A stretch of 64,000 nt of DNA from Candidatus Aminicenantes bacterium. Lineage in GTDB: Bacteria; Acidobacteriota; Aminicenantia; Aminicenantales; JAFGBC01. A model generated the notes under the pieces. The model was not told the origin of the DNA, made no database searches, and saw nothing but the letters and a program-made list of their open reading frames with translations. The stretch lies in contig OY969696.1 of assembly GCA_963702005.1 (NCBI GenBank), positions 3,904,001 through 3,968,000 of the forward strand, read 5' to 3'. Each line of letters opens with the position of its first letter. Position 1 is the first letter of the stretch. This document shows positions 11,808-31,367 of this stretch, piece after piece. Both the position numbers and the translations under genes were made by a program.

Positions 11808-13169
11808 TCAGACCAAACCCTGCTCCAGCATGGCCCTGGCAACCTTGAGGAAACCGCCTATATTGGCGCCATTGACATAATTTCCCGGGGTTCCGTATTG
11901 GTTGGCTGCTTCTACACAGGTTTTATGGATGCTCTTCATGATCTGGTGCAGGCGCTTGTCCACTTCCTCCCTCGACCAGCTCATCCTCATGCTGTTCTGG
12001 GACATTTCAAGACCCGAGGTAGACACGCCGCCGGCATTCGCCGCCTTTCCTGGGCCGAACAGGATTTTGGCATCAACAAATACCTCAATGCCTTCGGCCG
12101 TGGTCGGCATGTTCGCGCCCTCGGCGACTACATAGACTCCATTCTTGACCAGGTTTTTGGCGTCTTTGGCGTTGATCTCGTTCTGGGTGGCGCTTGGGAA
12201 GGCGCAATCCGCTTTATGGTTCCAGAGAGGATTAGTGTCCATATCGGGCGTCAGCGGCGTATAGGTCACGCCTTTGAACTTATCGGCATAATCCTTGATC
12301 CGGCCCCGGCGAACGTTCTTCAGGTCCATAATAAAATCCAGCTTCTTCGAATCAATGCCCGCGGGGTCATAAATATAGCCGTTGGAATCGGATAGCGTCA
12401 CCGCCTTGCCCCCGAGCTGGTTGATCTTCTCCACCGTGTACTGAGCCACATTACCGCTTCCCGAGACGAGGCAGCTCTTCCCTTCGAGGGTTTGATTTCT
12501 GGTCCCGAGCATTTCCGCGGCAAAATACACGGCCCCATACCCCGTTGCTTCCGGCCGGATGAGCGAGCCGCCCCAATCGAGTCCTTTGCCCGTCAGAACC
12601 CCGGTGACTTCATTCCGCAATTTTCTATATTGGCCGTAAAGGAAGCCGATCTCACGTCCGCCCACGCCGATATCGCCGGCGGGCACATCGGTATCAGGAC
12701 CGATGTGCCGGAAGAGCTCACTCATGAAGCTCTGGCAAAGGCGCATGACTTCGTTATCGCTCTTTCCCTTTGCGTCAAAATCACAACCGCCCTTGCCGCC
12801 GCCCATGGGCAGCGTGGTCAAGGAATTCTTAAACACCTGTTCAAAAGCAAGGAACTTCAGGATGCCCAAGTTGACGGTGGGATGAAAGCGCAGGCCGCCT
12901 TTATAGGGTCCGATCGCGCTGTTCATCTGGATCCTGTAGCCGCGATTGACGTGAATCTCCCCCGCGTCATCCATCCAGGCAACGCGGAACATGAGGACCC
13001 GCTCCGGCTCCGCGATCCGCTCGAAAATCTTGGCTTTTAGGTACTCGGGATGGCGTTCCAGAACCAAGGAGACGGAGCTGGCAACTTCATAAACGGCTTG
13101 ATGGAACTCGGGTTGCGCGGGGTTCTTGGCCTTGATTTCATCCATGAAATCTTTGACATAATTATTCAT
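11808..13169 (-). CDS. gdhA: NADP-specific glutamate dehydrogenase
   Basis: GPYKGGLRFH, EQVFKNSLT, GGGKGG, DVPAGD, RPEATGYG, SGSGNVA, KAANAGGV all intact. Confidence 0.95.
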   Translation of the reverse strand: MNNYVKDFMDEIKAKNPAQPEFHQAVYEVASSVSLVLERHPEYLKAKIFERIAEPERVLMFRVAWMDDAGEIHVNRGYRIQMNSAIGPYKGGLRFHPTVNLGILKFLAFEQVFKNSLTTLPMGGGKGGCDFDAKGKSDNEVMRLCQSFMSELFRHIGPDTDVPAGDIGVGGREIGFLYGQYRKLRNEVTGVLTGKGLDWGGSLIRPEATGYGAVYFAAEMLGTRNQTLEGKSCLVSGSGNVAQYTVEKINQLGGKAVTLSDSNGYIYDPAGIDSKKLDFIMDLKNVRRGRIKDYADKFKGVTYTPLTPDMDTNPLWNHKADCAFPSATQNEINAKDAKNLVKNGVYVVAEGANMPTTAEGIEVFVDAKILFGPGKAANAGGVSTSGLEMSQNSMRMSWSREEVDKRLHQIMKSIHKTCVEAANQYGTPGNYVNGANIGGFLKVARAMLEQGLV

Positions 13170-13374
13170 ATATGCTCCTTCGCAAAAAAACTTTCGGAGA
13201 TTATACTGTATAAATCTCCTTCATTTTAATAAATCAGAAATTTTATGGATTTATTTGGATAATATTAGGATTTGAATAAAAATATCGGCTTCTTTCCGGA
13301 CACAAACACTCCTTGACTTTTAAGGAAGCAAGAATTATTTTTGATTTAAGAACATATGAAAAAGGGATAAAACA
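13170..13374. promoter_or_regulatory. AT-rich divergent control region between the two gdh genes, with palindrome TTATAC-T-GTATAA
   Basis: Perfect palindrome 13201-13213 flanked by GAGA/TCTC; a TTGACT -35-like hexamer near 13313. Confidence 0.45.
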
Positions 13375-14661
13375 GTGGGCGACAGATCTTATAACACCTT
13401 CCTGATAGCTCAGGCTCAATTCGATAAGACGGCGGAATGGCTCGATCTTGACCCGCCGACACGTGAACTCCTGCGTTTGCCGATGAAAGAATATCAATTC
13501 CTGATACCTCTCCAGATGGATGACGGGAGGGTCCAGATATTCAGAGGTTTCCGGGTTGTCCATAACGACGCCCGAGGACCCGGTAAGGGGGGAATCCGGT
13601 TTCATCCCTACGAGACCATCGATACCATCCGGGCCCTGGCGATGTGGATGACATGGAAATGTGCTCTGATGAATATCCCTCTGGGCGGCAGCAGCGGCGG
13701 CATCGTCTGCGATCCCCATTTCCTAAGCCTCCGAGAACAGGAGCGGCTCTGCCGAAGCTGGATCCGAAAGCTCGCCAGGGATTTGGGACCTCAAGTCGAT
13801 GTCCCGGCTCCTGACATCATGGCCTATACTCAGCACATGCTTTGGATGCTCGACGAATACGAAACGATCCGGGGTGAGAAACTCCCCGGTTTCATAACCG
13901 GAAAACCCGTGGGAATGGGCGGCTCTCTGGGCAGGATAGAGGCGACAGGCTTCGGCCTTGTCTTTGCTCTGCGCGAGGCCTTGAAGGAGCTGAACATCCA
14001 GCCTGACGACACCACCGCGAGTATCCAGGGCTTCGGCAACGTGGCCCAGCATGCCAGCCGTCTTTTTGAACAGATCGGCGGAAAAGTGATTTGTATCGCC
14101 AGCTGGAATAATAAGGACGGAACCTCCTATTCTTACAAAAAAGAATCGGGAATAAGCCTCGAGGCCCTGGCCGGCATCACGGACCGCTTCGGGGATATCG
14201 ATAAAGAGAAAGCGGCGAAAATGGGCTGTGAGGTTCTGCCCGGAGAGGCCTGGCTGGCTCAGGAGGCCGATATCCTGATTCCAGCCGCGGTTGAGAATCA
14301 AATTACGGCCGAAAATGTGACGGCGATTCGCCCGCGCGTCAAAATTATCGCCGAGGGAGCGAACGGCCCGACCACGACCGAGGCCGATGATATGATCGCC
14401 GATCGAGGAATATTCGTTATCCCCGACATTCTCGCCAACGCCGGAGGCGTCACCTGCAGCTACTTTGAGCAGGTCCAGAGCAATATGAATTATTATTGGG
14501 AAAAGGATGAAGTCCTCGGCAAGCTGGATGTCAAGATGACTTCGGCCTTCAATTCTGTTCTGGAGTTCGCCAAGAAAAAAAAGCTTTCGATGAGGGGGGC
14601 GGCTTTTGCTATCGCGGTCGCCCGGGTGGCTCAAGCTTGCAAGGACCGAGGCTGGATCTAG
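13375..14661 (+). CDS. Glu/Leu/Phe/Val dehydrogenase-family protein lacking the catalytic Lys (possible regulatory pseudo-GDH)
   Basis: GPGKGGIRFH, MTWKC, PAPD, QGFGNVA and EGANGP present, but GGGKGG reads GGSSGG. Confidence 0.85.
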   Translation: MGDRSYNTFLIAQAQFDKTAEWLDLDPPTRELLRLPMKEYQFLIPLQMDDGRVQIFRGFRVVHNDARGPGKGGIRFHPYETIDTIRALAMWMTWKCALMNIPLGGSSGGIVCDPHFLSLREQERLCRSWIRKLARDLGPQVDVPAPDIMAYTQHMLWMLDEYETIRGEKLPGFITGKPVGMGGSLGRIEATGFGLVFALREALKELNIQPDDTTASIQGFGNVAQHASRLFEQIGGKVICIASWNNKDGTSYSYKKESGISLEALAGITDRFGDIDKEKAAKMGCEVLPGEAWLAQEADILIPAAVENQITAENVTAIRPRVKIIAEGANGPTTTEADDMIADRGIFVIPDILANAGGVTCSYFEQVQSNMNYYWEKDEVLGKLDVKMTSAFNSVLEFAKKKKLSMRGAAFAIAVARVAQACKDRGWI

Positions 14662-14718
14662 TTTCCGCAGCTCCTCTCGGCTGGGACAGCGAGGCCGCTT
14701 CCGTTATGACTAAAATCG

Positions 14719-16476
14719 ATGCCTGAGTCTTGGACAAAATCGCTCTCCCTCCGCATCGCACCCTTCGACCGTCATTTTTTCACCGGCAAGGAAAGGTTCA
14801 CGGCCATCGGCCGCGGTGCCCTGGGAGGCAAAGCCCACGGATTGGCCCGGATAGCAAACATCCTCGAGGAAAAGCTGGCTCCCTCATTCCGACCCGACAT
14901 CGACATCACAATCCCGATCTTAACCGTGATCACAACGGAATTCTTCGATCTTTTCATGAAGCAGAACAACCTTCAAGACGTTGCTTTTTCCAGCCTCCGC
15001 GATGATCAAATTACCGCGACGTTCCAGCAGGCGGAGCTGCCGGCCCAGCTCGTCGGGGATCTGCGCGCTCTCATCGCCCGGGTCATCACGCCTTTGGCCA
15101 TTCGTTCTTCCAGCATTCTGGAAGACGCCATGTTCGAGCCCTTCGCCAGCGTCTATTCCACAAAAATGATCCCCAATAACCAACCGGATACCGACAGCCG
15201 GTTCAGGAGACTGGTCGAGGCGGTTAAATTTGTCTATGCCTCGACTTTCTTCAAAGATGCAAAAAATTACATTCAAGCGACAAGGCACACAACGGCCGAT
15301 GAGAAAATGGCGGTTATTATTCAGGAAGTCGTCGGCGTCCGGCACGGCCCGCGTTTCTATCCTCACATCTCGGGGGTTGCCCGTTCCTATAATTTTTATC
15401 CCATTGGACACGCCAAGCCCGCCGACGGCGTCGTCGACCTGGCGCTCGGCCTGGGGAAGACGATCGTCGATGACGGCATCGCCTGGTCTTATTCGCCGGC
15501 CTTCCCGCAGGCCAATCCGCCTTACATGACACTGGGCGACCTGTTGAACCAAGCCCAGCACGAATTCTGGGCCGTCAATATGGGCTCGCCTCCCGAGTAC
15601 AACCCCATCAAAGAGACGGAATACCTGATGAAATTCAGCCTGGAGGATGCCGAGGAAGATGGAAACCTTCGCTTTCTCGCCTCCACCTACAGGGCTCAAG
15701 ACGACAAGATTGTCTACGGCATCGCGGAGAAAGGTCCCCGGATTATCGACTTCGCACCGATCTTAAAATTCGATTTACTGCCCCTCAACAGAATGCTCAA
15801 ATGCCTTCTCAAGATCTGCCAGGAAGAGTTGGAAAGAATGGTAGAGGTCGAGTTCGCCCTGACCCTGGATGATCGCCAAGGCAGGCCGGCCCGATTTGGT
15901 TTCCTTCAAGTGAGGCCCATGGTCGTCTCGGAAGAAAAAGCGGAGCTTAGGCCGGCGGATTTGAGGGGAGAAAACGTGCTGGTGGCCACGGAGTCGGCGC
16001 TGGGGAATGGAATCGTCGGAAACATTCGCGACGTCATTTACATCAAGCCGGAGAAATTCAACGTTCAACATTCGGAAACCGTCGCGGCTGAGCTTGAATT
16101 GCTGAATCATCATTTGTTGCAACAAGGCCTTCCCTATCTTCTTATCGGCTTTGGCCGTTGGGGGACGTCCGACCCGCAGGCCGGCATCCCGGTTAAGTTC
16201 GGCCAAATCTGCGGCGCCAAAGTCATCGTCGAATCTGCCCTCCCCGAAGTGCCTTCCCTTCTCAGCCAGGGCTCTCATTTCTTCCACAACATCACCAGCT
16301 TCAAAGTCCTCTACCTGTCCGTCAGTCATTGGGACAAGGACAACATTGACTGGAGTTGGCTGAACAAACAGCAAGTCATCCAGGAAACAAAATTCGTGAG
16401 ACAGGTTAGACTTCCCTCCCCCCTGCATATTCAAGTCGACGGCCTGACCGGTCGTGGGGTGATCATCCATGAATGA
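14719..16476 (+). CDS. PPDK/PEP-synthase N-terminal ATP-grasp protein with a C-terminal His motif
   Basis: LGGKAHGL, IRSSSILED, MAVIIQ, SGVARS, GLGKTIV, EVEFA, LQVRP; GRWGT and SQGSHFF; no PEP/pyruvate barrel. Confidence 0.85.
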   Translation: MPESWTKSLSLRIAPFDRHFFTGKERFTAIGRGALGGKAHGLARIANILEEKLAPSFRPDIDITIPILTVITTEFFDLFMKQNNLQDVAFSSLRDDQITATFQQAELPAQLVGDLRALIARVITPLAIRSSSILEDAMFEPFASVYSTKMIPNNQPDTDSRFRRLVEAVKFVYASTFFKDAKNYIQATRHTTADEKMAVIIQEVVGVRHGPRFYPHISGVARSYNFYPIGHAKPADGVVDLALGLGKTIVDDGIAWSYSPAFPQANPPYMTLGDLLNQAQHEFWAVNMGSPPEYNPIKETEYLMKFSLEDAEEDGNLRFLASTYRAQDDKIVYGIAEKGPRIIDFAPILKFDLLPLNRMLKCLLKICQEELERMVEVEFALTLDDRQGRPARFGFLQVRPMVVSEEKAELRPADLRGENVLVATESALGNGIVGNIRDVIYIKPEKFNVQHSETVAAELELLNHHLLQQGLPYLLIGFGRWGTSDPQAGIPVKFGQICGAKVIVESALPEVPSLLSQGSHFFHNITSFKVLYLSVSHWDKDNIDWSWLNKQQVIQETKFVRQVRLPSPLHIQVDGLTGRGVIIHE

Positions 16477-19400
16477 GAACTCAAAGAATACCGATTCCGT
16501 GATCTGGTTTTTATCCGAGCGGGCCAAGGAATTGAATTGCCTCTACAAGATCGAAGAGCTTCTCAACAAGCCGGATGCCGATCTGGACGATATCTGCCGA
16601 GGCGTTATCGAAGCCATTCCGCCGGGCTGGCAGTATCCGGACATCTGTGTCGCCAAAATCAGCCTCGAGGGACACGCGGCTCAATCCCCGAATTTCAAAG
16701 AGACCGCTTGGGTTCAGAATGCCGATATCAAAGTCCAGGACAAACACATAGGGAGGTTGAGCATTTACTATATCGAAGAGATGCCTCACGCCGCTGACGG
16801 GCCTTTCTTGAAAGAGGAGACAAAGCTCCTCGGAACGATCGTGGACCGACTGGGCCACTACATCCTTTATACACGGATGAAACAGGCCTACCAGGAGTAC
16901 CAGACGGCCCGCCGGGGCGTTTCAGCGGATCGAGCGGACGAATGGCGTGTGGCCCTGAATTTTTTACGTCAGACCAACAAAAACCTCTTCCTGAATATAT
17001 CCCGCCGCATGCTCAATTTTCTCAGCTGGGGAGGCATCCAGGAAGCCGAAAAGCTTCTCCTCAAAACACTGGCAGGAAAGAAAGCCGGCGAGAGCTATTC
17101 GGAAGAAGAGAATTTCCCCGATCAAGTCAGGCCGCAGTCCTTCGATGAAAAAATCAGCGAAGAAACGTTCAACCTTGCCGCCCGGCATCTCAGCACCGGC
17201 CAAATCCTGGCCAACATCCACAAATGGATCCAAGAGGACCGGCTGAGCTTTTTAGTGGAGGTCACAAACAGAAATCTCTCCCTGGCTCAGGTCGTGGACG
17301 CCATCCGTCGCTACCACCATATCGCCGCCGAGGGCATCGCACTCCCTCCGGAAAGTCGAAGGGGCGTTCTTGTCTCCCTGATCCGACGTTTTCTCTCCGA
17401 ACAGCCGGAATTCATCACCACGGCCATCAAGAATATTGAAATCGACGACTTCTATGAGATCCTGGATCACATTATTTTTTCGCCGGAGAGCCAGGGAAGG
17501 TTGGGAGGAAAAAGCACCGGGCTTTTTTTGGCCAAGCATATCATCGAGAAATCGGCCGATTCCTTGAGCCATTTCAGCCCGATCAAGGTGCCGAAAACAT
17601 GGTATATCTCCTCGGAGGGCCTGCTGAGCTTTCTCTCCTATAATAATCTCAACGAGGTTGTTGAGCAAAAGTACAAAGATATCAACCAAGTTCGGCTGGA
17701 GTATCCTCATATCGTTCAGACATTTAAAAATTCTCAGTTCCCCACGCATATCGTCCAGGGACTCTCCATGGTTCTCGACGACTTCAAGGACCAGCCCATC
17801 ATCGTCCGCAGCTCCAGTCTGCTGGAAGATCGGATGGGATCTTCGTTTTCCGGAAAGTACAAGAGCCTGTTCTTGGCCAACCAAGGCAGCAAAGGGGAGC
17901 GTCTTGAAGCCCTCAAAGACGCCATCGCTGAAATCTATGCCTCCACCTATGGCCCCGATCCTATCAGCTACCGGTCGGAGCGGAATCTTCTTGATTTCGC
18001 GGAAGAGATGGGCATCATGATCCAAGAAGTCGTGGGTACGCGGGTCGGGGACTATTTTTTCCCCTCTTTTGCCGGAGTGGCTTTGAGCCGCAACGAGTTC
18101 CGCTGGTCGCCATGGATCAAACGCGAAGACGGCCTGCTGCGATTGGTCCCCGGGTTGGGGACAAGGGCGGTGGACAGAACCAGCGATGATTATTCTGTCA
18201 TGATCGCCCCGGGACAGGTCGGGCTCCGCGTTAATGTCAGCGCCGACGAGGTCATCCGCTACTCGCCCAAAAAAATGGACGTCATCAACTTGAAAACGAA
18301 CGGCTTCGAAACCATCGAAGCCAAAGACCTGCTCAGGCGATATGGCCATCAACTCCCCGCCGCCGATAAAATCGTCTCCCTCTATGACGGTCAGTGCTTG
18401 CGAAAACCGTTGGGCCGGACGATCGATTGGGAGAAGGACGATCTTGTCATCACCTTTGAAGGACTCATCGACAGCACCCCCTTCATTTCCCAACTCCGAG
18501 AGGTCATGCGGATCCTAAAAGAAAAACTCCAGTTTCCCGTGGACATCGAATTCGCTTCCGATGGAAAGAGTTTTTATCTTCTCCAATGCAGGATGCAAAG
18601 CTACCTGGAAGGCAGCGAGCCCGCTTATATCCCCAAGAACCTGCCCAAGGAAAAAATCGTGTTCCTGGCCAATCGTTTTATCTCCAACGGGCGCATTCCG
18701 GATATTACTCATATCGTCTATGTCGATCCGCAAAGCTACGATGAGCTTCCCAATCGCGAGATGCTTCTGGCCGTCGGCCGCGCCGTGGGAAAGCTGAACA
18801 AGCTCTTGCCGCGGCGCCGATTCATCCTGATGGGGCCCGGTCGTTGGGGAAGCCGGGGAGATATCAAGCTTGGAATCAAGGCGTCCTACTCCGATATCTC
18901 AAACACGGCGGTCCTGATCGAGATCGCCCGAAAGAAAGGGCATTATCTTCCCGACCTCTCTTTCGGCACCCACTTTTTCCAGGATCTTGTCGAAGGAGAA
19001 ATTCGCTATCTGCCGCTCTACCCCGATGAAAAGGGCTCTATCCTTAAGGAAGACTTTTTCAAAAAGTCAGCCAATATCCTTCCCCAAATCTTGCCCGAAT
19101 TTGCCGATCTTGCCGATACCATCAAGGTCATAGATATTCCCGGGAGCACGGATGGAATGGCCCTCCGCATTCTGATGAATGCCGACCTGGATGAAGCCGT
19201 GGGATTTCTTGTCAACCCGGAGGTCGAACCCCTCTCTCCGCTTCCCGGGAGAGAAAAAGAAAAGGGCAAGCCGGAGAACCATTGGGCCTGGCGGCTCGAG
19301 ATGGCTGAACATATCGCTTCGCAGCTTGACGCCGGGCGTTTCGGCGTTAAGGCCCTCTACATAATCGGCAGCGCCAAGAATGCCACGGCCGGCCCGCAAA

Positions 19401-19651
19401 GCGACATCGACCTCTTGATTCATTTTCAGGGAACGAAGTCCCAGCGCCGGGACCTGGTCTCCTGGCTGGAGGGGTGGAGCCTCTGCTTAGACGAGATGAA
19501 TTTCCAAAAAACGGGATATAAGAGCGGGGGACTTCTCGATATCCATTTCGTCACCGATGCGGATGTCGCTAAAAAGACGAGTCATGCGGCCAAGATCGGC
19601 GCGGTCACGGACGCGGCCCGACTCCTCCCGCTCAAAGAATTGGTCAAATAA
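16469..19651 (+). CDS. GAF-like sensor + PPDK-type ATP-grasp + His motif + minimal nucleotidyltransferase fusion protein
   Basis: N-terminal ERAKELNCLY..WQYP; LGGKSTGL, VRSSSLLED, FSGKYKS, GLGTRAV, DIEFA; SFGTHFF; C-terminal GSAKNATAGPQSDIDL (GS..DxD). Confidence 0.85.
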   Translation: MNENSKNTDSVIWFLSERAKELNCLYKIEELLNKPDADLDDICRGVIEAIPPGWQYPDICVAKISLEGHAAQSPNFKETAWVQNADIKVQDKHIGRLSIYYIEEMPHAADGPFLKEETKLLGTIVDRLGHYILYTRMKQAYQEYQTARRGVSADRADEWRVALNFLRQTNKNLFLNISRRMLNFLSWGGIQEAEKLLLKTLAGKKAGESYSEEENFPDQVRPQSFDEKISEETFNLAARHLSTGQILANIHKWIQEDRLSFLVEVTNRNLSLAQVVDAIRRYHHIAAEGIALPPESRRGVLVSLIRRFLSEQPEFITTAIKNIEIDDFYEILDHIIFSPESQGRLGGKSTGLFLAKHIIEKSADSLSHFSPIKVPKTWYISSEGLLSFLSYNNLNEVVEQKYKDINQVRLEYPHIVQTFKNSQFPTHIVQGLSMVLDDFKDQPIIVRSSSLLEDRMGSSFSGKYKSLFLANQGSKGERLEALKDAIAEIYASTYGPDPISYRSERNLLDFAEEMGIMIQEVVGTRVGDYFFPSFAGVALSRNEFRWSPWIKREDGLLRLVPGLGTRAVDRTSDDYSVMIAPGQVGLRVNVSADEVIRYSPKKMDVINLKTNGFETIEAKDLLRRYGHQLPAADKIVSLYDGQCLRKPLGRTIDWEKDDLVITFEGLIDSTPFISQLREVMRILKEKLQFPVDIEFASDGKSFYLLQCRMQSYLEGSEPAYIPKNLPKEKIVFLANRFISNGRIPDITHIVYVDPQSYDELPNREMLLAVGRAVGKLNKLLPRRRFILMGPGRWGSRGDIKLGIKASYSDISNTAVLIEIARKKGHYLPDLSFGTHFFQDLVEGEIRYLPLYPDEKGSILKEDFFKKSANILPQILPEFADLADTIKVIDIPGSTDGMALRILMNADLDEAVGFLVNPEVEPLSPLPGREKEKGKPENHWAWRLEMAEHIASQLDAGRFGVKALYIIGSAKNATAGPQSDIDLLIHFQGTKSQRRDLVSWLEGWSLCLDEMNFQKTGYKSGGLLDIHFVTDADVAKKTSHAAKIGAVTDAARLLPLKELVK

Positions 19652-20507
19652 GCTCTTTGCTGGCGGCGTCTAATTGCTCCAGCTGAAAACGAATCAGAGC
19701 AAGCTCCGGCCCGTCGTGCGCGGCCGAGAAGCAGTGTGTCCGGCCGATGCGATCCCTCCAGGAAGCGGAGAGTCTCGCCGCCTCATGGACATGCCCGTGA
19801 AGCGTCAGAAACGGCTGTCGAGCCTCGATGAAGCGGCGGATAGCGATGCTGCCCAGATGATGATCGAGGGGGACGTAATCGATCATCTGTCCTTTGAGGC
19901 AAGAAAGGTCGAGCTTCGTTTGATAGGGAGGCGAATGGAAAAGAAAGACGGCCTTGGTCAGGTCTTCATTCTTCGTCAACCGTTCAAGGTCCTCCTTGAT
20001 GGTTGAATATTTGCTCTCCCGCTCGGAAACCGGAACGGACCGCAGTCCCTCTTCGGGGGATATTGTTCCAGGATCGATGTAGCGAGAGACGTCATAGCGC
20101 TCCCAGTCTTTCAGTCGGAAAGGAGTCGGTGGAACATAAGCATAGCCGTAGAGGGGAAAACCGTCGAAAACCACCTTGCGGTTATGAATATACTCCCAGA
20201 CGCCCTGGACGGCCGCATCCAGGACCGCGGCTTCTTCAAATCGGCCGTCGTCATTGCCCATGACCAGAAAGATCCTGGGATAGTCCGTCAGGAGCTCCTG
20301 ACGCAAAGCAAGGAAATTCTTCACAAGAAAGCCGTTGAAAAAATCTTGCTGGCTAAGACTCAAAGAGTCGCGAGCGGGCCGAGCCAAGGGCAAAAAATCG
20401 CCGCCGATGAAGACGGCCTTCGGCTTCTCAAGGGAAATAGCCCTAAAAAGCTTCTGATAGCGGCGCAGATCGCCGTGGAGATCGGAGACGAAAAAGCAAT
20501 TCCCCAC
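19644..20507 (-). CDS. Calcineurin-like metallophosphoesterase (Icc-related)
   Basis: SDLHG, GGD, GNDD, FHSPP, HGHVHE; likely GTG start at 20507. Confidence 0.85.
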   Translation of the reverse strand: MGNCFFVSDLHGDLRRYQKLFRAISLEKPKAVFIGGDFLPLARPARDSLSLSQQDFFNGFLVKNFLALRQELLTDYPRIFLVMGNDDGRFEEAAVLDAAVQGVWEYIHNRKVVFDGFPLYGYAYVPPTPFRLKDWERYDVSRYIDPGTISPEEGLRSVPVSERESKYSTIKEDLERLTKNEDLTKAVFLFHSPPYQTKLDLSCLKGQMIDYVPLDHHLGSIAIRRFIEARQPFLTLHGHVHEAARLSASWRDRIGRTHCFSAAHDGPELALIRFQLEQLDAASKELI

Positions 20508-20575
20508 GAAAAAATTATAAGCCAAAATTACTAAAAGTGACAATCGGCACGGATGAACCCGGCACCCGACCTCTG

Positions 20576-21301
20576 TCAAGCGTCTTCTTCATCCCCGAAC
20601 TTATAGCCGACGCCTCGAACGGTTTGGATATATTTCTTGGCCCCGCTCAGCTTTTTTCGAAGACCGGTCATATGATAATCGACGACGCGCTCCGTGATGG
20701 GATAGCCGTCCTCGCGGACATGATCAAGGATGAATGATCGGGTGAAAACCTGATTGGGCTTCCCGGCCATCAGGGCGAGAATCTCGAATTCTGTCTTGGA
20801 GAGATGGACCTTTTTGCCGTTGACGCGGACCTCGTAGGCTCCTCGATCGATGATCATATTGCCTATTTCCAGCCTTGTTTTTTCTTTTTCCGTCGATTTC
20901 TTCATCCTTCGCAGCAGAGCCTGGATGCGGGCCAGCAGGATTTCCGGCTCAAAAGGCTTGGTGATGTAGTCGTCGGCGAACTCCCTTAAGCCGGCGACAA
21001 CGTCTTCGACCTGCTTCTTGGCTGTGACCATGATGATCAAGGCATTGGATGTCCTAGAGTCCTTTTTCAGGATGCCGCAAACTTTCAACCCATCAATCCC
21101 GGGAAGGATAAGGTCCAGGAGAATAAGATCCGGCCTCTCTCGTCTGGCCAGCTGTAGGGCTTCCTCGCCGCTCTGGGCGCCGAGAACTTGGTATCCTTCT
21201 TTCCAGAGGATAAAAGAGAGGCTATTTTGAAGGTTGACATCGTCCTCAACGCACAATATCTTGATCTTGGCGCCAGGCTGAACTTCGCTTGGAGACTTCA
21301 T
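20576..21301 (-). CDS. OmpR/PhoB-family response regulator (no canonical histidine kinase nearby)
   Basis: VEDD, LLDLILPGIDG, DDYITKPF, winged helix ending IQTVRGVGY; start MKSP at 21301. Confidence 0.92.
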   Translation of the reverse strand: MKSPSEVQPGAKIKILCVEDDVNLQNSLSFILWKEGYQVLGAQSGEEALQLARRERPDLILLDLILPGIDGLKVCGILKKDSRTSNALIIMVTAKKQVEDVVAGLREFADDYITKPFEPEILLARIQALLRRMKKSTEKEKTRLEIGNMIIDRGAYEVRVNGKKVHLSKTEFEILALMAGKPNQVFTRSFILDHVREDGYPITERVVDYHMTGLRKKLSGAKKYIQTVRGVGYKFGDEEDA

Positions 21302-21435
21302 TCTATTACTGCCGTTCTTCAAGAAACAAAGAATATTGTAATTAAATCCAAACAAAAAGCAAATAAATCCATAACAATTCGCGCCGTCTACGATAAAAAA
21401 CATCGGAGAAAAAAATAGAGCTAGGCGGGAACGGG

Positions 21436-22881
21436 TCAGCGGCTTCGGGCTCTTTCCTGATAGACTTTGATCCATTTTTCGACGATTTGAATCAGCGTCC
21501 CTCTCAACTCGGCAGCGCTTCCGTGGATGGGGCGGAGCTCCTCGGCAAGTTCCGGATATTCTTTTCGATCCAGCCAGGACGAAATGATATCGTTATCCGA
21601 ATAGGGCTGAATGACGCCCGCGTCCAGAGTTTTAAGACACATCCAGAGCTCGCGCAGGTTGAATATCTTGTGTCCGTCGATGATCAGCGGGATCCGCTTG
21701 ATCCGGGCCATCTCCCTCCGGAAATCTCTCTTCAACAGGGTGATGAGCTGCCGGCCCCGGCTTCTTCTCGGGCGCAGGCGGTCGCCGAGTTCCTGAAAAC
21801 TGTGCATATAAAGCCACGTGGAGAATTTATCTTTTTCCCCGTAGCTTTCCAAAATATCCCTGAGCCGTCGGCCCGGCGGGCAGTCTTTCTCGGCTTCCGA
21901 CAGGATCTGGCAAATTCCGTGAATGTCTTTAGCCCGATGCAATTCCCGCCCGTCTTCGTCATAGATGAGAAAATCTCCCAGCCCCGTGAAATTGAGAATA
22001 TAATCCTTAAGCTTCTCCAGGCTTCCCGGATCGCCCTTGGGAAGAATAAAGCCGAGGTCGCTTAATTCATGAGCCTCTTTCGCCTTAGAGGCGATAATCA
22101 CGGGAATCCGAGGATAGGCGCTTTTCACCAGGCGGATCAGGTCGCGGCCGGCATCCGTCTGGAGTTCGTTGTGTTTGGGAAAATAGATATCCGCGATCAG
22201 ACAAACGACGTCATCGCCGTGCCCGCTTGATAAAGACCCTTTGTCCTTGATCTGAGATTCATCCTCAACGCCAAAAATGAATCGAAGACTCTCCTCGTAG
22301 GTTCGAGTGATCATCACATCCGCACGTTGGCCGATAATACTATAAAGGACGGGGAGGAATTGAGAGAACCAGCGCGGCTCATCATCGACGATATGAAAAA
22401 TAAACCGCCGGGCGTTAGAATATTTCTTGATATTGAGCAAATCCTCCGCCGCCCGGACGACGGAGGCAAGAATTCTCTCGGGCGCGCATTCGTTCCGGTT
22501 GACGGCAAAGATGAGGTCGGCCTTGGTCACATAGGGATACCTCTGGGCGGCAGCTTGAGGGGGGGAACACTGGATGAAAACTTGGGAGGAGAGAAGAACA
22601 AGAACAGCGTCTGGGTTGTGAACGCGGATTGTATTCGTATCGAGAATCGCCAGGGCGGTATCATCAAACAGAAATACACAGGCCTTTTCATAAGCGCGGC
22701 TCATAACCGACGGCGGATCATGGAGAACTTCCGTCTCAAGCCAGGGCATATTTTTCCCCAAAATTTCCAGGCCCTCGCGGATCCGTGAATCAGCGGCAAA
22801 AATGACCGCCTTTTTCATCCTGACCGGGTTGATAATCCGAGGAATGAAGGGATGCTCTCTGTTCCCGCTTCGGCTATTCAT
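21436..22881 (-). CDS. Receiver-like domain protein with C-terminal helical S-x-WL repeats
   Basis: FHIVDDEP, LIADIYFP and IPVIIAS resemble a receiver fold; DKFSTWL and DIISSWL repeats. Confidence 0.6.
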   Translation of the reverse strand: MNSRSGNREHPFIPRIINPVRMKKAVIFAADSRIREGLEILGKNMPWLETEVLHDPPSVMSRAYEKACVFLFDDTALAILDTNTIRVHNPDAVLVLLSSQVFIQCSPPQAAAQRYPYVTKADLIFAVNRNECAPERILASVVRAAEDLLNIKKYSNARRFIFHIVDDEPRWFSQFLPVLYSIIGQRADVMITRTYEESLRFIFGVEDESQIKDKGSLSSGHGDDVVCLIADIYFPKHNELQTDAGRDLIRLVKSAYPRIPVIIASKAKEAHELSDLGFILPKGDPGSLEKLKDYILNFTGLGDFLIYDEDGRELHRAKDIHGICQILSEAEKDCPPGRRLRDILESYGEKDKFSTWLYMHSFQELGDRLRPRRSRGRQLITLLKRDFRREMARIKRIPLIIDGHKIFNLRELWMCLKTLDAGVIQPYSDNDIISSWLDRKEYPELAEELRPIHGSAAELRGTLIQIVEKWIKVYQERARSR

Positions 22882-24541
22882 TTTCTAAAACGACTTCGCA
22901 GCGTTGTTTGAGACAGTCCGCATAGACCGTCACCGGCCCCGGGAAAGACAAGACACCGAGGACGCTATCGGGCTGGGAACAGGAAAAAAGCCAGGGGTCG
23001 AAGGTATCCTGCATGGGCATGATATAGCCATAAATGATGTTGTTGCCCGCCAGGTTCGTCAGAAAATGCGTTCCCTGGGTTCCATACATCCTGGTCTGCA
23101 GTCTTTTTTGATCCTCATTAAAGCCGCCTTGAATCATATACAGAAAATGACTGCCGTAGACTCCTCCGGTTAAGCTCTCCTCTTCCGGCAAAGGTTCCGA
23201 CCGTCCCTCCACATCCACTCCGTATTCGAAAATAGCCGCCGCCTGATCCACGTCTTTATACTCAACGAAGATGCCCCAGTCTTTGTTTCGGCTTCCGAGA
23301 CGGCCCGGCACAATCAAGATATATTTCTCGTTCCGGCTCGCCATGTCTTGGTTGATCTGGGCGATTTTCTTGCGGACGACGGGCTGGAACTCTTTCTTAT
23401 AAATAAACGGAGATACGACGAGCGCATGTTTGATGTTCCTTTTAATCCCATGTCCCTGGGCATTATTGATGGCGAGATAGGTATGAAGGACGGACGGGGG
23501 GATCTGGATGGAGTCCAACTTCAATTCAGGCAGCTGAGTCAACTGGACAATGTGAAAAGTCCCGTCTCCTTTGTCCTTCCTGGAAAAATCGAGGTTGAAG
23601 ACAAATTCGATCAGAAACTGAGAAGAGATACGAGAGGCGATGATCTCCATGATTTCCACGAGGCCTGTCTTGAATCCGAAATGGTTATTCTGGATGAGAT
23701 CTTCTATGGTGATGAGGTTGTTCCGGATTCCCAACAGCTTGATCTTATGGTAATTGGCGAACCGGACATGAAGCTTCTTCATGGTTTCCAGTTCTTCGCC
23801 CTTGAGCTCCCTATTTTTGGTCATGTCCAGAGCATAAAAAAATTGCTGGCCGCTTCCAATTCGCAAGAGACGGAGGGGGATAGGATTGGAGATCGTGGCC
23901 ATGGAGATAACGGGAAAATCGTCCAAGACGGTGGCATAGCCGTGTCCGAAAGCGATCCGGGCAAAGCCTTCGCTGGGATTCTGGTTCTTGAGGGCGTGCG
24001 GGAAGAAGGAAACGGCGACCCCGGAAATATAAGGATAATAAACGGGGCCGGCGTAGGTGTCATCGAATATTCCCGGAATGGGATTGATGACGATGGCCAT
24101 TTTCTCTCGGCTCGAGGCGGGTTGTTTCCTGAGAAAATCATTGTAGATATGGGTCACGGCTTGGATGACCTGAGAAAGTCTCACTTCAGGATCAGGGTGA
24201 TTGTTGGGCAGCATGAAGGACGCGTTCTCCCCGGCATGAATGGAACCTCCGGCCTGCGCCGTCGGACCCGCCTCATTTGTCGCGGAAGAGCGAATTCCCA
24301 AAGGAACGTCCGTCAATTCTCCAAGAATCGAGAGCACGACATTTTGTTCCTCGTCCCCAAATCTTCCGTCATTGGCGAGGAAACTATCAAAGAAGGAAGT
24401 GGTCAGGATATAGGTTTTCAACTTGCTGACCTTGGGAAGGGAAAGTTGGTTGATCTTAACGAGTCCGGCTCCCTTCCCGCCCAGAGAACCCGTCCCGTAG
24501 ATTTTGACAGCCTCGGCTATTTGGGCCATGGGAATATTCAT
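22874..24541 (-). CDS. Divergent PPDK-type ATP-grasp protein
   Basis: GSLGGKGAGL, GIRSSA, SGVAVS, IEFVF, PGRLGS; two His motifs YGSHFL and QGTHFL; several ATP-grasp residues altered. Confidence 0.7.
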   Translation of the reverse strand: MNIPMAQIAEAVKIYGTGSLGGKGAGLVKINQLSLPKVSKLKTYILTTSFFDSFLANDGRFGDEEQNVVLSILGELTDVPLGIRSSATNEAGPTAQAGGSIHAGENASFMLPNNHPDPEVRLSQVIQAVTHIYNDFLRKQPASSREKMAIVINPIPGIFDDTYAGPVYYPYISGVAVSFFPHALKNQNPSEGFARIAFGHGYATVLDDFPVISMATISNPIPLRLLRIGSGQQFFYALDMTKNRELKGEELETMKKLHVRFANYHKIKLLGIRNNLITIEDLIQNNHFGFKTGLVEIMEIIASRISSQFLIEFVFNLDFSRKDKGDGTFHIVQLTQLPELKLDSIQIPPSVLHTYLAINNAQGHGIKRNIKHALVVSPFIYKKEFQPVVRKKIAQINQDMASRNEKYILIVPGRLGSRNKDWGIFVEYKDVDQAAAIFEYGVDVEGRSEPLPEEESLTGGVYGSHFLYMIQGGFNEDQKRLQTRMYGTQGTHFLTNLAGNNIIYGYIMPMQDTFDPWLFSCSQPDSVLGVLSFPGPVTVYADCLKQRCEVVLENE

Positions 24542-27396: not shown

Positions 27397-29337
27397 TCAC
27401 TTGTCCTCACTCTCCTGAATCCCAAGCGAGCGCCGCATCTTGCGTTCAAAGGCCGATGCAAGTCTGACCTCGAGTGCTCTCTTGGCTGTCTTCAGGCTTG
27501 TTCCGAACACCAGATTCAACAGGCCGAACACTGCCGCAAAGCCCAGAGCGACAGGGAGAATCAGTCTCGCCCAACCAAAAGACAACTTGGGAAACGGCTC
27601 AGGCAGAGTCGCGTACGCTGCCGCAAGCAAGAGCGGGAAGACGATTCCCATCGCGGCCGTAGAGACGACGGCAGCCCTTCGTACTGAGATGGATCGGACT
27701 CGCTCGGCCAGTTGTCTCTGCTTCTCCTTTGCAGCGGCTACGTCCTGCTCCGCCTTGAGTCTCCTATCTCGCTCGGCTTGGGCCTTCCGCTCTGACTCGG
27801 CTCTGATCTCGGCTAGAGCCAAGGAAAGCACCTCGTCAGGCGTGCCCTCGACGAACGCCGCCGGATCGCCGGCAGTCACATCCATGAGCATGCGCCGAGC
27901 TTCAGTAGAGAACCGAAGCACCATGTAGTCATCGTCGCCGATAGTGCCTTCCTCCTGAAGCTGGCTGATCCGCGCGAGGTACTTGCGCCAGAGCGACTCA
28001 GACGGTTGGTAGGACGTATGGCATGACGCGATCAGACGCTTCCTCGGTAGCTCAGGCGCTCGCGTCGGCGACTTCAGCCAAGCAAGCGTTGCCAAGACAT
28101 GGTCGAGGACTGCCGGGGGCACGCTGGGCTGCTTCCTGGAGCCGCAGAAGAACTCTGCTCCGACCTGTGCCAATGCGGCATTGGAGGTGACGAAGATGGC
28201 CTTGCATGACTCCAGATCTCCTATGAGCCGTCCCCGTCTGATACGATGTATTGATGTAAGAGCGTCGATGTCGTGGTGGAGAGACTCGTCGTGCTTGTAC
28301 AGAATGCGCGCCCGAAGGGCCTTCTCCAGAGCGGCTTCATCAACGCCAAGGGGATTCTCGTGCTCAGGGCGCTGCTTGACCCTGATGCGACGACTGGAGA
28401 GAAGAGACGGTAGCTTGCCTATCTTCAGCTCCACACTGCTTGACGTAATCCCCTCTTTCAGTAGGAACTCGTCGAGTTCGAAGTGCGGGTCTCCCCTGGA
28501 CGGAGCCGACTTGAGAGCATGCGAGGTTGCGCTGAGTACTCTTCGAACCTCCTCGAGAGTCGAGTCGAAGCAGCAGAGCTGGGCATTCAGCTGGTAAAGG
28601 AGCTCGAGAAGCTCGATCGTTGGTGCCTGCAGAGCCGGTGTGGCCATGCCGATCGCCCTTAGAACTATGGGCGTGTCCAAGTACATCTGCACATCCTCGA
28701 ACCGCTGCTCGACCTCGCCGAGGTTCGGGTACAGAAGGACATTGGCCAGCATGCTACCTTTCACGATCATTTCGAGGTCCGAGAACAGCGTCGGCTCCTC
28801 TTCGCATATGTGCTGACTGAATGATGCTGCTAGGAAGGTGGCTCGACCCGACGCCGAATCTGGTAGTGCAAGTGGACTCCCCTCAACGACCGACATCAGG
28901 ATTGGAACAGACTGCCCTTCGACATATGAGAGAAGCGCCTCCTCTGCCGCTTCCCTAGATAGTTCGAGGCTGTGCTTCCTATGAACGTACGCGATGAAGG
29001 CATCAATCAGGGAGTTCACTCGGCGTAGGGCGGCTGCACGAGCATTGGATGTGTCGTACTTGGCGAGAGCATCCGGTAGTCTCAAGTAGACTCGGTTCTG
29101 AAGCTTGACCAGCCCTCGCTTGTAGGCCCGTCCCAGAATCGTCTTCAAGGCACCGAGCGGGATGTTGAATCCAAAGAGGACACGGACACCCTGCTGCAGC
29201 TGTCCCAAGGAAATCTGGTCCTGCGAGGCGTCCGACAGAGCCTCTGCGACGAAGGGCACGAAGCCCTCGATATAGTCGTGGCCGCGGTCCCAATTGACCT
29301 GCAGAATAGCGAGGCTCGCTAGTGCTCTGTCAGACAA
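27397..29337 (-). CDS. Integron cassette protein, 646 aa: PIN-like motifs, coiled coil and two C-terminal TM helices
   Basis: YLDTPIV, HDIDAL, FVTSN; hydrophobic C-terminal segments; bounded by an attI-like site and an attC. Confidence 0.65.
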   Translation of the reverse strand: MSDRALASLAILQVNWDRGHDYIEGFVPFVAEALSDASQDQISLGQLQQGVRVLFGFNIPLGALKTILGRAYKRGLVKLQNRVYLRLPDALAKYDTSNARAAALRRVNSLIDAFIAYVHRKHSLELSREAAEEALLSYVEGQSVPILMSVVEGSPLALPDSASGRATFLAASFSQHICEEEPTLFSDLEMIVKGSMLANVLLYPNLGEVEQRFEDVQMYLDTPIVLRAIGMATPALQAPTIELLELLYQLNAQLCCFDSTLEEVRRVLSATSHALKSAPSRGDPHFELDEFLLKEGITSSSVELKIGKLPSLLSSRRIRVKQRPEHENPLGVDEAALEKALRARILYKHDESLHHDIDALTSIHRIRRGRLIGDLESCKAIFVTSNAALAQVGAEFFCGSRKQPSVPPAVLDHVLATLAWLKSPTRAPELPRKRLIASCHTSYQPSESLWRKYLARISQLQEEGTIGDDDYMVLRFSTEARRMLMDVTAGDPAAFVEGTPDEVLSLALAEIRAESERKAQAERDRRLKAEQDVAAAKEKQRQLAERVRSISVRRAAVVSTAAMGIVFPLLLAAAYATLPEPFPKLSFGWARLILPVALGFAAVFGLLNLVFGTSLKTAKRALEVRLASAFERKMRRSLGIQESEDK

Positions 29338-31366: not shown

Positions 31367-31367
31367 A

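Follow-up and report, generated by a model that had tools for sequence, protein, structure and literature searches.

To determine why, in a 64,000-nucleotide stretch of DNA from Candidatus Aminicenantes bacterium (GCA_963702005.1, contig OY969696.1, positions 3,904,001 to 3,968,000; termed here the window), two glutamate dehydrogenase (GDH) genes lie beside three proteins resembling pyruvate phosphate dikinase (PPDK), the region between positions 11,808 and 24,541 was examined. An initial annotation had described eight genes here, namely, an intact gdhA divergent from an operon encoding a GDH paralog (gdh2) and two ATP-grasp proteins (agA and agB), converging on genes encoding a third ATP-grasp protein (agC), a receiver-like protein (rec481), an OmpR-type regulator (ompR) and a metallophosphoesterase (mpp). 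This observation was confirmed, with all eight genes being present as described. The features of the region are listed in Table 1.

Table 1. Features of the GDH-linked region, with coordinates referring to the window.
Position	Strand	Feature	Description
11808-13169	-	gdhA	Canonical NADP-type glutamate dehydrogenase, 453 aa; GGGKGG motif intact (PMGGGKGG)
13240-13285	.	Direct-repeat element	Conserved, AT-rich; TGGAT-like units about 10-11 bp apart in the gdhA/gdh2 divergent promoter region; candidate operator for the cluster's OmpR-type regulator (inferred)
13313-13341	+	Promoter-like site	TTGACT-17-TATTTT, upstream of gdh2
13375-14661	+	gdh2	GDH-family protein, 428 aa; presumed catalytic lysine lacking (PLGGSSGG; position 107); probable pseudo-enzyme
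14719-16476	+	agA	Barrel-less dikinase-like protein; ATP-grasp at about residues 15-410; swivelling carrier domain at about 413-585, with His520 (bases 16276-16278)
16469-19651	+	agB	1060 aa; sensor domain at residues 1-150 (16469-16918); helical region; ATP-grasp at 344-721 (17498-18631); carrier domain at about 722-930 with His835 (18971-18973); Pol-beta-type nucleotidyltransferase at about 931-1060 (19259-19651); start overlaps the agA stop by 8 bases
19644-20507	-	mpp	Metallophosphoesterase, about 287 aa from GTG 20507; convergent on agB
20514-20543	-	Promoter-like site	TTGTCA-18-TATAAT (11 of 12), ending 7 bases before the mpp GTG
20576-21475	-	ompR	OmpR-family response regulator (receiver plus winged helix); true start probably later than the listed ORF
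21436-22881	-	rec481	Degenerate receiver-like domain, then a receiver, then a DUF5752-like C-terminal domain
22874-24541	-	agC	Divergent barrel-less dikinase-like protein, 555 aa; GRLGS and TQGTHFL motifs; stop overlaps the rec481 start

The identity of each product was first considered by searches against Pfam and NCBIfam profiles. GdhA matched the NADP-specific GDH equivalog NF006929 at 747.8 bits (cut-off 536), as well as ELFV_dehydrog and ELFV_dehydrog_N, whereas Gdh2 carries both ELFV_dehydrog domains yet scored below all NCBIfam GDH cut-offs. AgA and AgB matched PPDK_N (E 4e-36 and 9e-54, respectively), with AgB also matching NTP_transf_2 at residues 958-993. By contrast, AgC presented only a sub-threshold PPDK_N match (E 0.0017), although it aligns with the family at 24% identity and retains the GR.G and G[ST]HF motifs. 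The mpp product matched Metallophos, that of ompR matched Response_reg and Trans_reg_C and was PhoB/MtrA-like but below cut-offs, and Rec481 yielded no Pfam match at E<=0.01. In agreement with the initial annotation, the G(S/T)HF motif was found in AgA (GSHFF), AgB (GTHFF) and AgC (GSHFL and GTHFL), no PEP-utilizers_C or PEP-utilizers match was obtained at E<=0.01, and no HisKA or HATPase domain was detected among the 18 ORFs scanned between 8.8 and 36.6 kb. Two gene starts were revised. The mpp ORF, listed as 19644-20579, probably begins at GTG 20507, as inferred from the orthologue consensus MxxCFFVSDLHG and the sequence, while ompR orthologues are 232-284 aa in length. The promoter-like site preceding this GTG, which rests on a consensus match only, suggests that mpp has its own, possibly leaderless, transcript.

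To address what type of enzyme AgA, AgB and AgC might be, structural models and profile alignments were next considered. The AF2 model of AgA (pLDDT 91.6) matched rifampin phosphotransferase (5hv1) at Z 25.7, HpeI (9goj) at Z 18.5 and PPDK at Z 12.3. Residues 413-585 of AgA matched the PPDK phosphoryl carrier domain (2fm4) at Z 6.5 (117 aligned) and the pyruvate kinase extra domain (2e28), also at Z 6.5. Alignment with hhalign was colinear with 12 canonical PPDKs (E 6e-4) and placed S519-H520 on the PPDK TSH motif, H520 thus falling on the catalytic His. The carrier-domain match is, however, moderate, since Z 6.5 lies below the level at which a match is taken to be clearly specific by this method, and the hhalign probability is only 28.7%. 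Across the family, K38, R129 and S131 are invariant and the His is present in 92 of 95 rows. The AF2 model of AgB, in which the motif region 790-853 has a pLDDT below 50, gave a GAF-like N-terminus and an ATP-grasp domain like that of 5hv3 in Foldseek searches, while an alignment of 31 sequences revealed H835, G967, S968, D979 and D981 to be invariant. As such, the three proteins comprise a PPDK-type ATP-grasp domain and a divergent swivelling phospho-His-type carrier domain, with none having a PEP/pyruvate barrel. They are not the PPDK of the cell, as a complete 933-aa PPDK is encoded elsewhere in the genome.

Because conserved linkage to gdh had been set beforehand as a condition whose failure would refute the initial annotation, gene neighborhoods were compared in 80 related loci from several phyla. 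In 71 of 73 evaluable loci, gdh2 lies directly upstream of agA. In 75 of 76 loci, agB is directly downstream of agA, the one miss (locus L077) reflecting a split agA match that was mishandled in parsing. In 56 of 58 loci, mpp follows agB, being convergent in 54. No other neighbor was conserved. The linkage thus holds strongly, although the genomes and loci are related, such that the counts overstate independence. The core unit is gdh2-agA-agB-mpp, a point missed in the initial annotation, whereas gdhA, agC, rec481 and ompR form a second, lineage-specific unit. agC and rec481 co-occur in the same 22 of the 80 loci, with ompR present in 18 of these. The module is patchy among relatives, with the query having matched in 22 of 31 genomes of the same order (its own genome included) and full-length orthologues occurring in about half; it is not essential. 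The same genome contains a second locus, in which gdh3 is followed by an agB paralogue and then by a normal hybrid histidine kinase.

The linkage also holds in a separate branch of the family. Indeed, AgC plus Rec481 correspond to a split form of a widespread REC-REC-DUF5752-ATP-grasp-His fusion, with Rec481 being homologous to the N-terminal part of one such fusion protein, P0131 (E 6e-12). This fusion is encoded directly beside a GDH gene in 16 of 20 genome loci, with a GDH gene somewhere in the locus in 19 of 20. In metagenome loci with both flanks evaluable, it is beside a GDH gene in 31 of 54, while 21 of the 54 have no GDH within 6 kb and share no other conserved neighbor. That the components act together is further suggested by the existence of AgA-AgB fusions, such as P0121, and by the overlapping stop and start codons of agA/agB and agC/rec481.

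Possible inputs to and outputs of these proteins were also considered. The N-terminal sensor domain of AgB also occurs on HisKA_2 and HisKA_3 histidine kinases. In Rec481, D166, D167, D231, S265 and K282 of the second receiver are invariant, preserving the acidic pocket, Ser and Lys, while weak DUF5752 matches were obtained for 6 of 15 members. The residues of the predicted writer and eraser are likewise intact, with D33, H35, D61, N109, H215, H263 and H265 of the phosphoesterase being invariant in 25 orthologues. Comparison of the gdhA/gdh2 intergenic regions revealed that the direct-repeat block stays conserved while the rest of the sequence varies, as do the TTGAC(T/A) box and the downstream TATTT of the gdh2 promoter-like site. 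A pattern derived from the block occurs once per locus, always between gdhA and gdh2, in 19 of the 80 loci plus the window, and 0 times in 20 shuffles, although the pattern was derived from the same sequences on which it was counted.

Not appreciated in the initial annotation was that the GDH paralog is probably catalytically dead here, with GGSSGG replacing GG[GAS]KGG. The presumed catalytic Lys is replaced in 32 of 72 orthologues, and positions 62, 147 and 191 are also relaxed. At the same time, Gdh2 is under strong conservation and keeps its substrate-binding lysines K71 and K95 and its dinucleotide-binding motif even where Lys107 is lost. Loss of the Lys and the arrival of gdhA, agC and rec481 is essentially one evolutionary event (one clade of 32 plus one single row), such that this correlation counts once.

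Taken together, these findings are best, albeit tentatively, explained by two linked modules, each pairing a GDH gene with barrel-less PPDK-type enzymes that would act as signal-controlled, protein-modifying His-phosphotransfer enzymes dedicated to GDH. The first comprises gdh2-agA-agB with the convergent mpp, and the second comprises gdhA with agC, rec481 and ompR. In this view, ATP would be used to phosphorylate the carrier His, the phosphoryl group would pass to GDH, the nucleotidyltransferase of AgB would serve as a second writer and the phosphoesterase as the eraser, with input coming through the AgB sensor domain or the Rec481 receiver. Whereas the genes and their linkage to gdh were confirmed, phospho-His formation rests on homology only, input is inferred from domain architecture, and transfer, nucleotidyltransferase activity and the eraser role are inferred without biochemical or expression evidence of any kind. 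In this lineage, Gdh2 would probably serve as a non-catalytic partner (sensor, regulatory subunit or decoy) while GdhA does the chemistry, and OmpR, acting on the repeat element, would add transcriptional control. Against this reading, no acceptor residue on GDH was identified, a catalytically dead Gdh2 is an odd regulatory target, and the patchiness of the module and the metagenomic loci without GDH must also be weighed. The interpretation offered in the initial annotation, namely, that these proteins are non-canonical phospho-donors or modifiers for the receivers or for GDH, with the phosphoesterase as eraser, was thus supported in part. The comparative data favor GDH as the dedicated partner, with the receivers as inputs rather than as phospho-acceptors, since the commonest relatives are the REC-REC-DUF5752-ATP-grasp-His fusions, whose only conserved neighbor is a GDH gene.

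Of the alternatives, a non-canonical two-component relay, the main idea of the initial annotation, survives best yet is considered unlikely. Here, the ATP-grasp plus His modules would replace HisKA/HATPase as autokinases, passing phosphate to the receiver Asp of Rec481 and then to OmpR, which would control gdhA and gdh2 transcription, with GDH-family proteins and the AgB sensor domain providing metabolic input. In agreement with this, ompR lies in one operon-like run with agC and rec481 and no histidine kinase was found among the ORFs scanned, the same sensor domain heads either AgB or classical histidine kinases as if the two transmitters were interchangeable, the second receiver of Rec481 keeps D166, D167, D231, S265 and K282, a dead Gdh2 fits a sensor role better than a target role, and there is an operator-like element. 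By contrast, the core module in most phyla has no receiver and no DNA-binding regulator nearby, the commonest arrangement of the fused family is just GDH plus the fusion with no output regulator, the second locus carries a normal hybrid histidine kinase, and phosphotransfer from a PEP-utilizer-type His to a receiver Asp is not known to have been described.

Somewhat less likely still is that AgA and AgB (and AgC plus Rec481) form a multi-subunit small-molecule dikinase like phenylphosphate synthase or HpeHI, phosphorylating a metabolite of the GDH reaction, such as glutamate, 2-oxoglutarate or a derivative, with the GDH-family protein or DUF5752 serving as substrate-binding subunit in place of the PEP/pyruvate barrel. 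Indeed, all characterized relatives found by fold search (rifampin phosphotransferase, PEP synthase, PPDK and HpeI, a stand-alone ATP-grasp chain) act on small molecules, catalytic residues are strongly conserved, AgA orthologues are 52-82% identical across phyla, as for a metabolic enzyme, and Gdh2 keeps its substrate-binding lysines. However, frequent fusion to receivers and to a histidine-kinase-type sensor, plus the nucleotidyltransferase and phosphoesterase partners, fit regulation better than a pathway, no further pathway genes are conserved nearby, the GDH type paired with the family varies (gdhA-type or gdh2-type) and 21 of 54 loci have none, and the module is absent from many close relatives. 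Least likely is that the ATP-grasp proteins are non-covalent subunits reporting ATP/AMP or another ligand to GDH without phosphotransfer, as suggested by their tight linkage with GDH and by the inactive APRT homologue that makes Thermus GDH AMP-sensitive (PMC9570180), since the almost invariant ATP-grasp catalytic residues and carrier His argue for catalysis and an intact GS...DxD nucleotidyltransferase motif and a phosphoesterase with all metal ligands are conserved alongside.

Comparison with the closest known systems was next considered. With PPDK and PEP synthase, the proteins share the GGK, RSS..ED and Q.R motifs of PPDK_N, a C-terminal domain with the fold of the phosphoryl carrier domain and the aligned G[ST]H motif, yet they lack the PEP/pyruvate TIM barrel, carry a carrier domain too divergent for Pfam PF00391, score far below cut-off for all NCBIfam PEP synthase models and have added sensor, receiver and nucleotidyltransferase domains. 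Rifampin phosphotransferase and the split dikinases phenylphosphate synthase and HpeHI show that the ATP-grasp plus His unit can be combined with different acceptor-binding modules or subunits, although here there is no rifampin-binding domain (NF041857 scores of 18-29 bits against a cut-off of 999) and the partner gene is a GDH rather than part of an aromatic-compound pathway. In Enzyme I of the phosphotransferase system, a swivelling phospho-His domain phosphorylates a protein, and EI-Ntr (PtsP) carries an N-terminal GAF sensor tied to nitrogen status, comparable to the GAF-like N-terminus and carrier His of AgB; here, however, the donor module is an ATP-grasp (ATP) rather than the PEP-binding barrel, and no HPr/NPr-like gene lies in the cluster. 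The GlnE/GlnD covalent-modification cycles present a resemblance of logic only, namely, a nucleotidyltransferase writer plus a hydrolytic eraser coupled to sensor domains and encoded next to a central nitrogen enzyme, whereas here the nucleotidyltransferase is a minimal Pol-beta/MNT-like domain, the presumed eraser is a calcineurin-like metallophosphoesterase and the associated enzyme is GDH, rather than glutamine synthetase or PII. In Thermus thermophilus hetero-hexameric GDH, a catalytically inactive GdhA subunit is kept for regulation (PMC9570180), offering a precedent for Gdh2, yet the accessory proteins are unrelated and, in four of five related genomes checked, the only other GDH is the distant gdhA type at 36-37% identity, leaving no close active paralogue with which Gdh2 could form mixed hexamers. 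Finally, an OmpR-family regulator, receiver domains and a sensor domain shared with HisKA_2 and HisKA_3 kinases are held in common with classical two-component systems, although no HisKA/HATPase transmitter lies in the cluster and the ATP-using module has an ATP-grasp fold.

No description of such proteins was found in literature searches. GDH genes here, and in many uncultured bacteria, sit next to undescribed sensor-equipped enzymes that resemble PPDK without its substrate barrel, which points to an unknown way of controlling a central nitrogen enzyme.

To verify the gene map proposed in the initial annotation, the ORFs of the window were listed and scanned against Pfam and NCBIfam. All eight genes were found as described, and the observation thus held. 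gdhA is divergent from gdh2, while the plus-strand genes converge on a minus-strand run that ends with mpp, with agA/agB and agC/rec481 each overlapping by a few bases. The features considered here are listed in the table below.

Coordinates of the features considered in this study
Feature	Coordinates	Strand	Finding
gdhA	11808-13169	minus	NADP-type GDH, above the NF006929 cut-off
Low-G+C region	12001-38000		G+C 0.47-0.59, against 0.60-0.66 in the flanks
TGGAT-like repeat block	13240-13285		About 45 bp, units 10-11 bp apart, between gdhA and gdh2
Promoter-like TTGAC(T/A)...TATTT	13313-13341		Between gdhA and gdh2
gdh2	13375-14661	plus	Both GDH domains, below every NCBIfam GDH cut-off
agA	14719-16476	plus	PPDK_N
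agB	16469-19651	plus	PPDK_N plus a short Pol-beta-type NTase match at residues 958-993
agB sensor domain (residues 1-150)	16469-16918	plus	Predicted GAF-like fold, unnamed in Pfam
mpp	19644-20579	minus	Metallophosphoesterase
Promoter-like TTGTCA-18-TATAAT	20503-20543	minus	Ends 7 bases before the probable GTG start of mpp
ompR	20576-21475	minus	OmpR-type regulator
rec481	21436-22881	minus	No Pfam match
agC	22874-24541	minus	Sub-threshold PPDK_N
646-aa ORF	27397-29337	minus	No Pfam match at E<=1e-4
Low-GC stretch with defence or mobile-type genes	29863-36593		AAA_14/DUF4143 ATPase; GmrSD_N plus HNH endonuclease; N6_Mtase/Eco57I-type methylase; AAA_16 ATPase
Second GDH-linked locus of the same genome	G000:C1 about 1125903-1131830 (locus L081 7904-13831)		gdh3, agB paralogue, hybrid histidine kinase
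Stand-alone NTase-like ORF of a related genome	G049:C3:116078-116365		136 aa, 49% identical to agB residues 960-1055

The closest related locus comes from a Candidatus Aminicenantales MAG, with protein identities of 71-91%. The lower G+C content of the region, together with the patchy presence of the module among relatives of the same order, raises the possibility that the whole region was acquired horizontally, while the defence or mobile-type genes that lie nearby probably mark a restriction/defence island next to the module. Because of this patchy distribution, the module is considered accessory. Comparison with the PADLOC model set returned no system-level match, only weak single-domain matches (NTase to PDC-S09, MPP to PDC-S10 and the receiver to PD-T4-6), and a defence role for the module was not considered further. 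Likewise, no Rfam match was obtained at E<=0.1 between positions 11000 and 26000, while the number of terminators detected (17) was not above that seen in shuffled sequences (mean 18.2).

The nature of the three ATP-grasp proteins was next considered. PPDK_N was matched by agA (E 4e-36) and agB (E 9e-54), both above the 27-bit cut-off, whereas agC reached only 18.1 bits. No match to PEP-utilizers (PF00391, at E<=0.01), PEP-utilizers_C (PF02896), HisKA or HATPase was found in the eight genes or in ten flanking ORFs. When an alignment of 95 rows comprising diverse relatives was used, AlphaFold2 yielded a confident model of agA (pLDDT 91.6, pTM 0.91) that ends with the putative carrier domain and so lacks a PEP/pyruvate barrel. 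In this model, residues from about 15 to 410 are predicted to form an ATP-grasp domain, with the best matches being rifampin phosphotransferase (Z 25.7), HpeI (Z 18.5) and PPDK (Z 12.3). Residues 413-585 matched the phosphoryl carrier domain of PPDK (2fm4; Z 6.5, rmsd 3.9, 117 residues aligned) and, equally well, the homologous extra domain of B. stearothermophilus pyruvate kinase (2e28; Z 6.5). Profile-profile alignment against 12 canonical PPDKs was colinear over agA residues 9-584 and placed S519-H520 of the GSHFF motif on the catalytic TSH motif (E 6e-4), albeit with a probability of only 28.7%. In the family alignment, K38, R129, S131, G479, R480 and E505 are invariant, while the His is kept in 92 of 95 rows.

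agB has the same core, with H835 being invariant in 31 orthologues, although the agB model is poor exactly around this motif (pLDDT below 50 over residues 790-853). agC is a divergent member, about 24% identical, that keeps the GR.G and TQGTHFL motifs. Similarity to rifampin phosphotransferase does not extend to the equivalog level, as NF041857 scored 18.1 bits with agA and 28.7 bits with agB, against a cut-off of 999. Searches of PDB sequences with phmmer gave nothing useful for agA, only weak PEP synthase matches for agB and only matches of E>0.3 for the NTase part. The same genome contains a separate and complete 933-aa PPDK with all three Pfam domains, including PEP-utilizers_C at E 1e-81. 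As such, agA, agB and agC are taken to be putative PPDK-type His-phosphotransfer units that lack the acceptor barrel. They are not PEP synthases.

Additional domains were also identified. agB residues 1-150 are predicted to fold like a GAF domain, with Foldseek returning 3p01, 6oap and 8jrc with probability 1.0 and E 0.04-0.08. This sensor domain, which contains an invariant ER.KEL.C.Y motif (Cys24) and a WQYP motif, recurs at the N-terminus of or inside histidine kinases of related genomes, heading classical histidine kinases at loci L113 (PAS-HisKA_2-HATPase), L115 (HisKA_3-HATPase) and L114. At the agB C-terminus, PF01909 was matched at 23.8 bits (cut-off 21), with G967, S968, D979 and D981 of the GS...[DE]x[DE] nucleotidyltransferase motif being invariant in 31 sequences. 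The stand-alone ORF resembling this NTase domain occurs in a related genome (G049) for which no full-length agB match was listed. mpp matched PF00149 (E 5e-10) and retains the DxH, GD, GN(H/D)D/E, H and GHxH metal-binding motifs, with D33, H35, D61, N109, H215, H263 and H265 being invariant in 25 orthologues and the third motif reading GNDD. A search of PDB sequences with the mpp profile gave only 2yvt, at E 0.0085.

The ompR product contains both a receiver (PF00072, E 1e-26) and a winged-helix domain (PF00486, E 2e-22), yet falls below the cut-off of all named NCBIfam equivalogs. rec481 comprises a degenerate receiver, a second receiver-like domain and a DUF5752-like tail, the latter matched in 6 of 15 members (best E 0.006). 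In the second domain, D166, D167, D231, S265 and K282 are invariant in 15 sequences, although Pfam Response_reg matched only 1 of 15 members, at E 0.044, and the roles of these residues are assigned by position rather than by structure. Comparison of rec481 residues 288-481 with the named clusters of a protein atlas gave no usable hit.

To determine whether the gene neighborhood is conserved, relatives of agA were sought. A word-indexed search revealed more than 7400 homologues, listed in databases as hypothetical or named at most 'PEP/pyruvate-binding domain-containing protein'. Eighty genome loci holding agA relatives of 52-82% identity, from MAGs labelled Aminicenantes, Krumholzibacteriota, Zixibacteria, Eisenbacteria, Ignavibacteria, Coatesbacteria, Planctomycetota, UBP1 and GN15, were examined. 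gdh2 was directly upstream of agA in 71 of 73 evaluable loci, agB was directly downstream of agA in 75 of 76 and mpp followed agB in 56 of 58 (convergent in 54). By contrast, agC and rec481, always found together, were present in 22 of 80 loci, ompR in 18 of 80 and gdhA in 29 of 80, while no other gene cluster was conserved. Fusions of agA and agB also exist, such as protein P0121 (1639 aa), which has two PPDK_N stretches and is 46% identical to agB over its full length, although it has lost the GS of the NTase motif. At another locus (L153, in genome G088, contig C1), a variant of module 1 (gdh2-agA-agB-mpp) is seen, in which gdh2 is followed directly by agB without agA, and mpp lies next to the fused REC gene described next.

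A full HMMER scan of the wider family revealed 3148 representatives at 50% clustering. Many are about 1000 aa long, with the agA-like unit at the C-terminus. The idea that such proteins are fusions of GDH and agA was rejected, since their N-termini are receiver plus DUF5752; of eight long forms scanned, Response_reg matched in four and DUF5752 in two of those. As rec481 is homologous to this N-terminal part (E 6e-12), agC plus rec481 is a split version of the fused form with permuted gene order. The fused form occurs in 61 of 151 sampled genomes of the phylum, a denominator that includes one unpublished genome without a match.

The proximity of the fused form to GDH genes was then considered. 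In 20 genome loci of 20 kb, from at least 13 families, a GDH gene was present in 19 and within 700 bp in 16, mostly of the gdhA type, co-directional and upstream. Of 80 metagenome loci, 54 offered at least 1 kb on both flanks, and in these, GDH was directly adjacent in 31, elsewhere in the locus in 2 and absent in 21, with the latter sharing no alternative neighbor. Four genome loci (L154, L155, L157 and L163) carry both modules, like the window, but with the fused gene. Four metagenome contigs (loci L167, L170, L174 and L175) carry tandem repeats of the pair of gdhA-type GDH and REC-DUF5752-ATP-grasp-His genes (two pairs in a row), sometimes followed by a gdh2-type gene. A further pairing was seen in the window's own genome, where gdh3 (428 aa, 62% identical to gdh2, GGGKGG intact) is followed by an agB paralogue (44% identical over 920 aa, no NTase domain) and then by a REC-PAS-HisKA_2-HATPase hybrid kinase, with no agA or mpp seen there. 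GDH is therefore the one recurrent partner of this family, in at least three arrangements.

Examination of gdh2 revealed both the ELFV dehydrogenase fold (PF00208, E 3e-68) and the dimerization domain (PF02812, E 6e-50). In the window, however, the GG[GAS]KGG motif reads GGSSGG (within PLGGSSGG). Judged by spacing only, position 107 corresponds to Lys125 of the Clostridium symbiosum enzyme, with the supporting correspondences being K71=Lys89, K95=Lys113 and D147=Asp165; Lys113 and the catalytic Asp165 are named in bioRxiv 10.1101/2024.12.26.630402. Lys125 has a catalytic role in GDH. This Lys is replaced by S, T, N, H or Y in 32 of 72 orthologues, while gdhA and gdh3 keep it. In the group without the Lys, positions 62, 147 (D to E in 11 of 33) and 191 are also relaxed, yet overall identity stays at 73%. 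Of the 32 non-Lys loci, 28 have gdhA nearby, as compared to 1 of the 40 Lys-type loci. Still, on a quick tree the non-Lys rows form one clade of 32 (SH-aLRT 94) plus one separate row, such that this is essentially one event and must not be read as many independent correlations. gdh2 is thus probably a pseudo-enzyme here. A precedent for an inactive regulatory GDH subunit exists in Thermus (PMC9570180). However, the idea that the dead gdh2 forms mixed hexamers with a close active paralogue such as gdh3 is not general, since of five related genomes with the module, none has a gdh3-like copy, one has a 41% paralogue and four have only gdh2 and the distant gdhA. Complex prediction for agA (residues 14-585) and gdh2 gave a median score of 0.43, with one control scoring 0.25, a margin too small for the result to count for or against binding.

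Both the repeat block and the promoter-like sequence found between gdhA and gdh2 stay conserved while the rest of the spacer varies. A pattern derived from the block occurs once per locus, always at that place, in 19 of 80 loci plus the window and never in 20 shuffles, although it should be noted that the pattern was fitted to these same sequences. It is a plausible site for the OmpR-type protein of the cluster, although this is inferred. The strong promoter-like site preceding mpp suggests a leaderless transcript for the phosphoesterase, independent of the agC-rec481-ompR run.

Taken together, the data fit best with sensor- or receiver-controlled His-phosphotransfer enzymes that act on, or with, GDH, with the NTase and the phosphoesterase being a further writer and an eraser, respectively. 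Phospho-His formation is inferred from homology, and transfer to GDH, NTase activity and the eraser role are likewise only inferred. In this view, the receivers look like inputs, as the minimal widespread unit is GDH plus the REC-fused enzyme, with no output regulator. The interpretation offered in the initial annotation is supported in part. Its alternative, with phosphate passed to receivers and on to OmpR, remains possible for the window's lineage and would suit a dead gdh2 acting as a sensor. A small-molecule dikinase with GDH as the substrate-binding partner cannot be excluded.

A more far-reaching and, at present, doubtful possibility is that the barrel-less ATP-grasp plus swivel-His proteins are a new class of signal-controlled protein kinase ('protein dikinases'), with GDH as their dedicated substrate. 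Together with a fused nucleotidyltransferase and a metallophosphoesterase, they would form a covalent-modification cycle for GDH, comparable in logic to GlnE/GlnD for glutamine synthetase, that would be widespread in Acidobacteriota (including Aminicenantia), Krumholzibacteriota, Zixibacteria, Ignavibacteria and other uncultured phyla. In the window's lineage, the GDH of the cycle would have become a pseudo-enzyme that acts as a modifiable signal protein, with that signal feeding, through agC, rec481 and OmpR, into transcription of the working gdhA.

Although the components belong to known superfamilies, no system that combines them in this way or pairs them with GDH is known to us, and literature searches, which covered few subscription journals and no supplementary files, found no description of this family, of DUF5752 or of a GDH-dikinase linkage. 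GDH sits at the junction of carbon and nitrogen metabolism, with its known bacterial controls being allosteric effectors, FHA-protein binding, trigger-enzyme moonlighting and inactive regulatory subunits. Here, a large family is locked to GDH genes across many poorly studied phyla that dominate anoxic sediments, wetlands and soils. The work also corrects annotation, given that these proteins are not PEP synthases and that the window's gdh2 is probably not an active GDH. If members of this family modify GDH, this would add a new protein-kinase chemistry (ATP-grasp/His-swivel), a new regulatory cycle for nitrogen metabolism and an explanation for a widely misannotated family. Even if the acceptor proves to be a receiver or a metabolite, the result would still be a new use of the dikinase scaffold.
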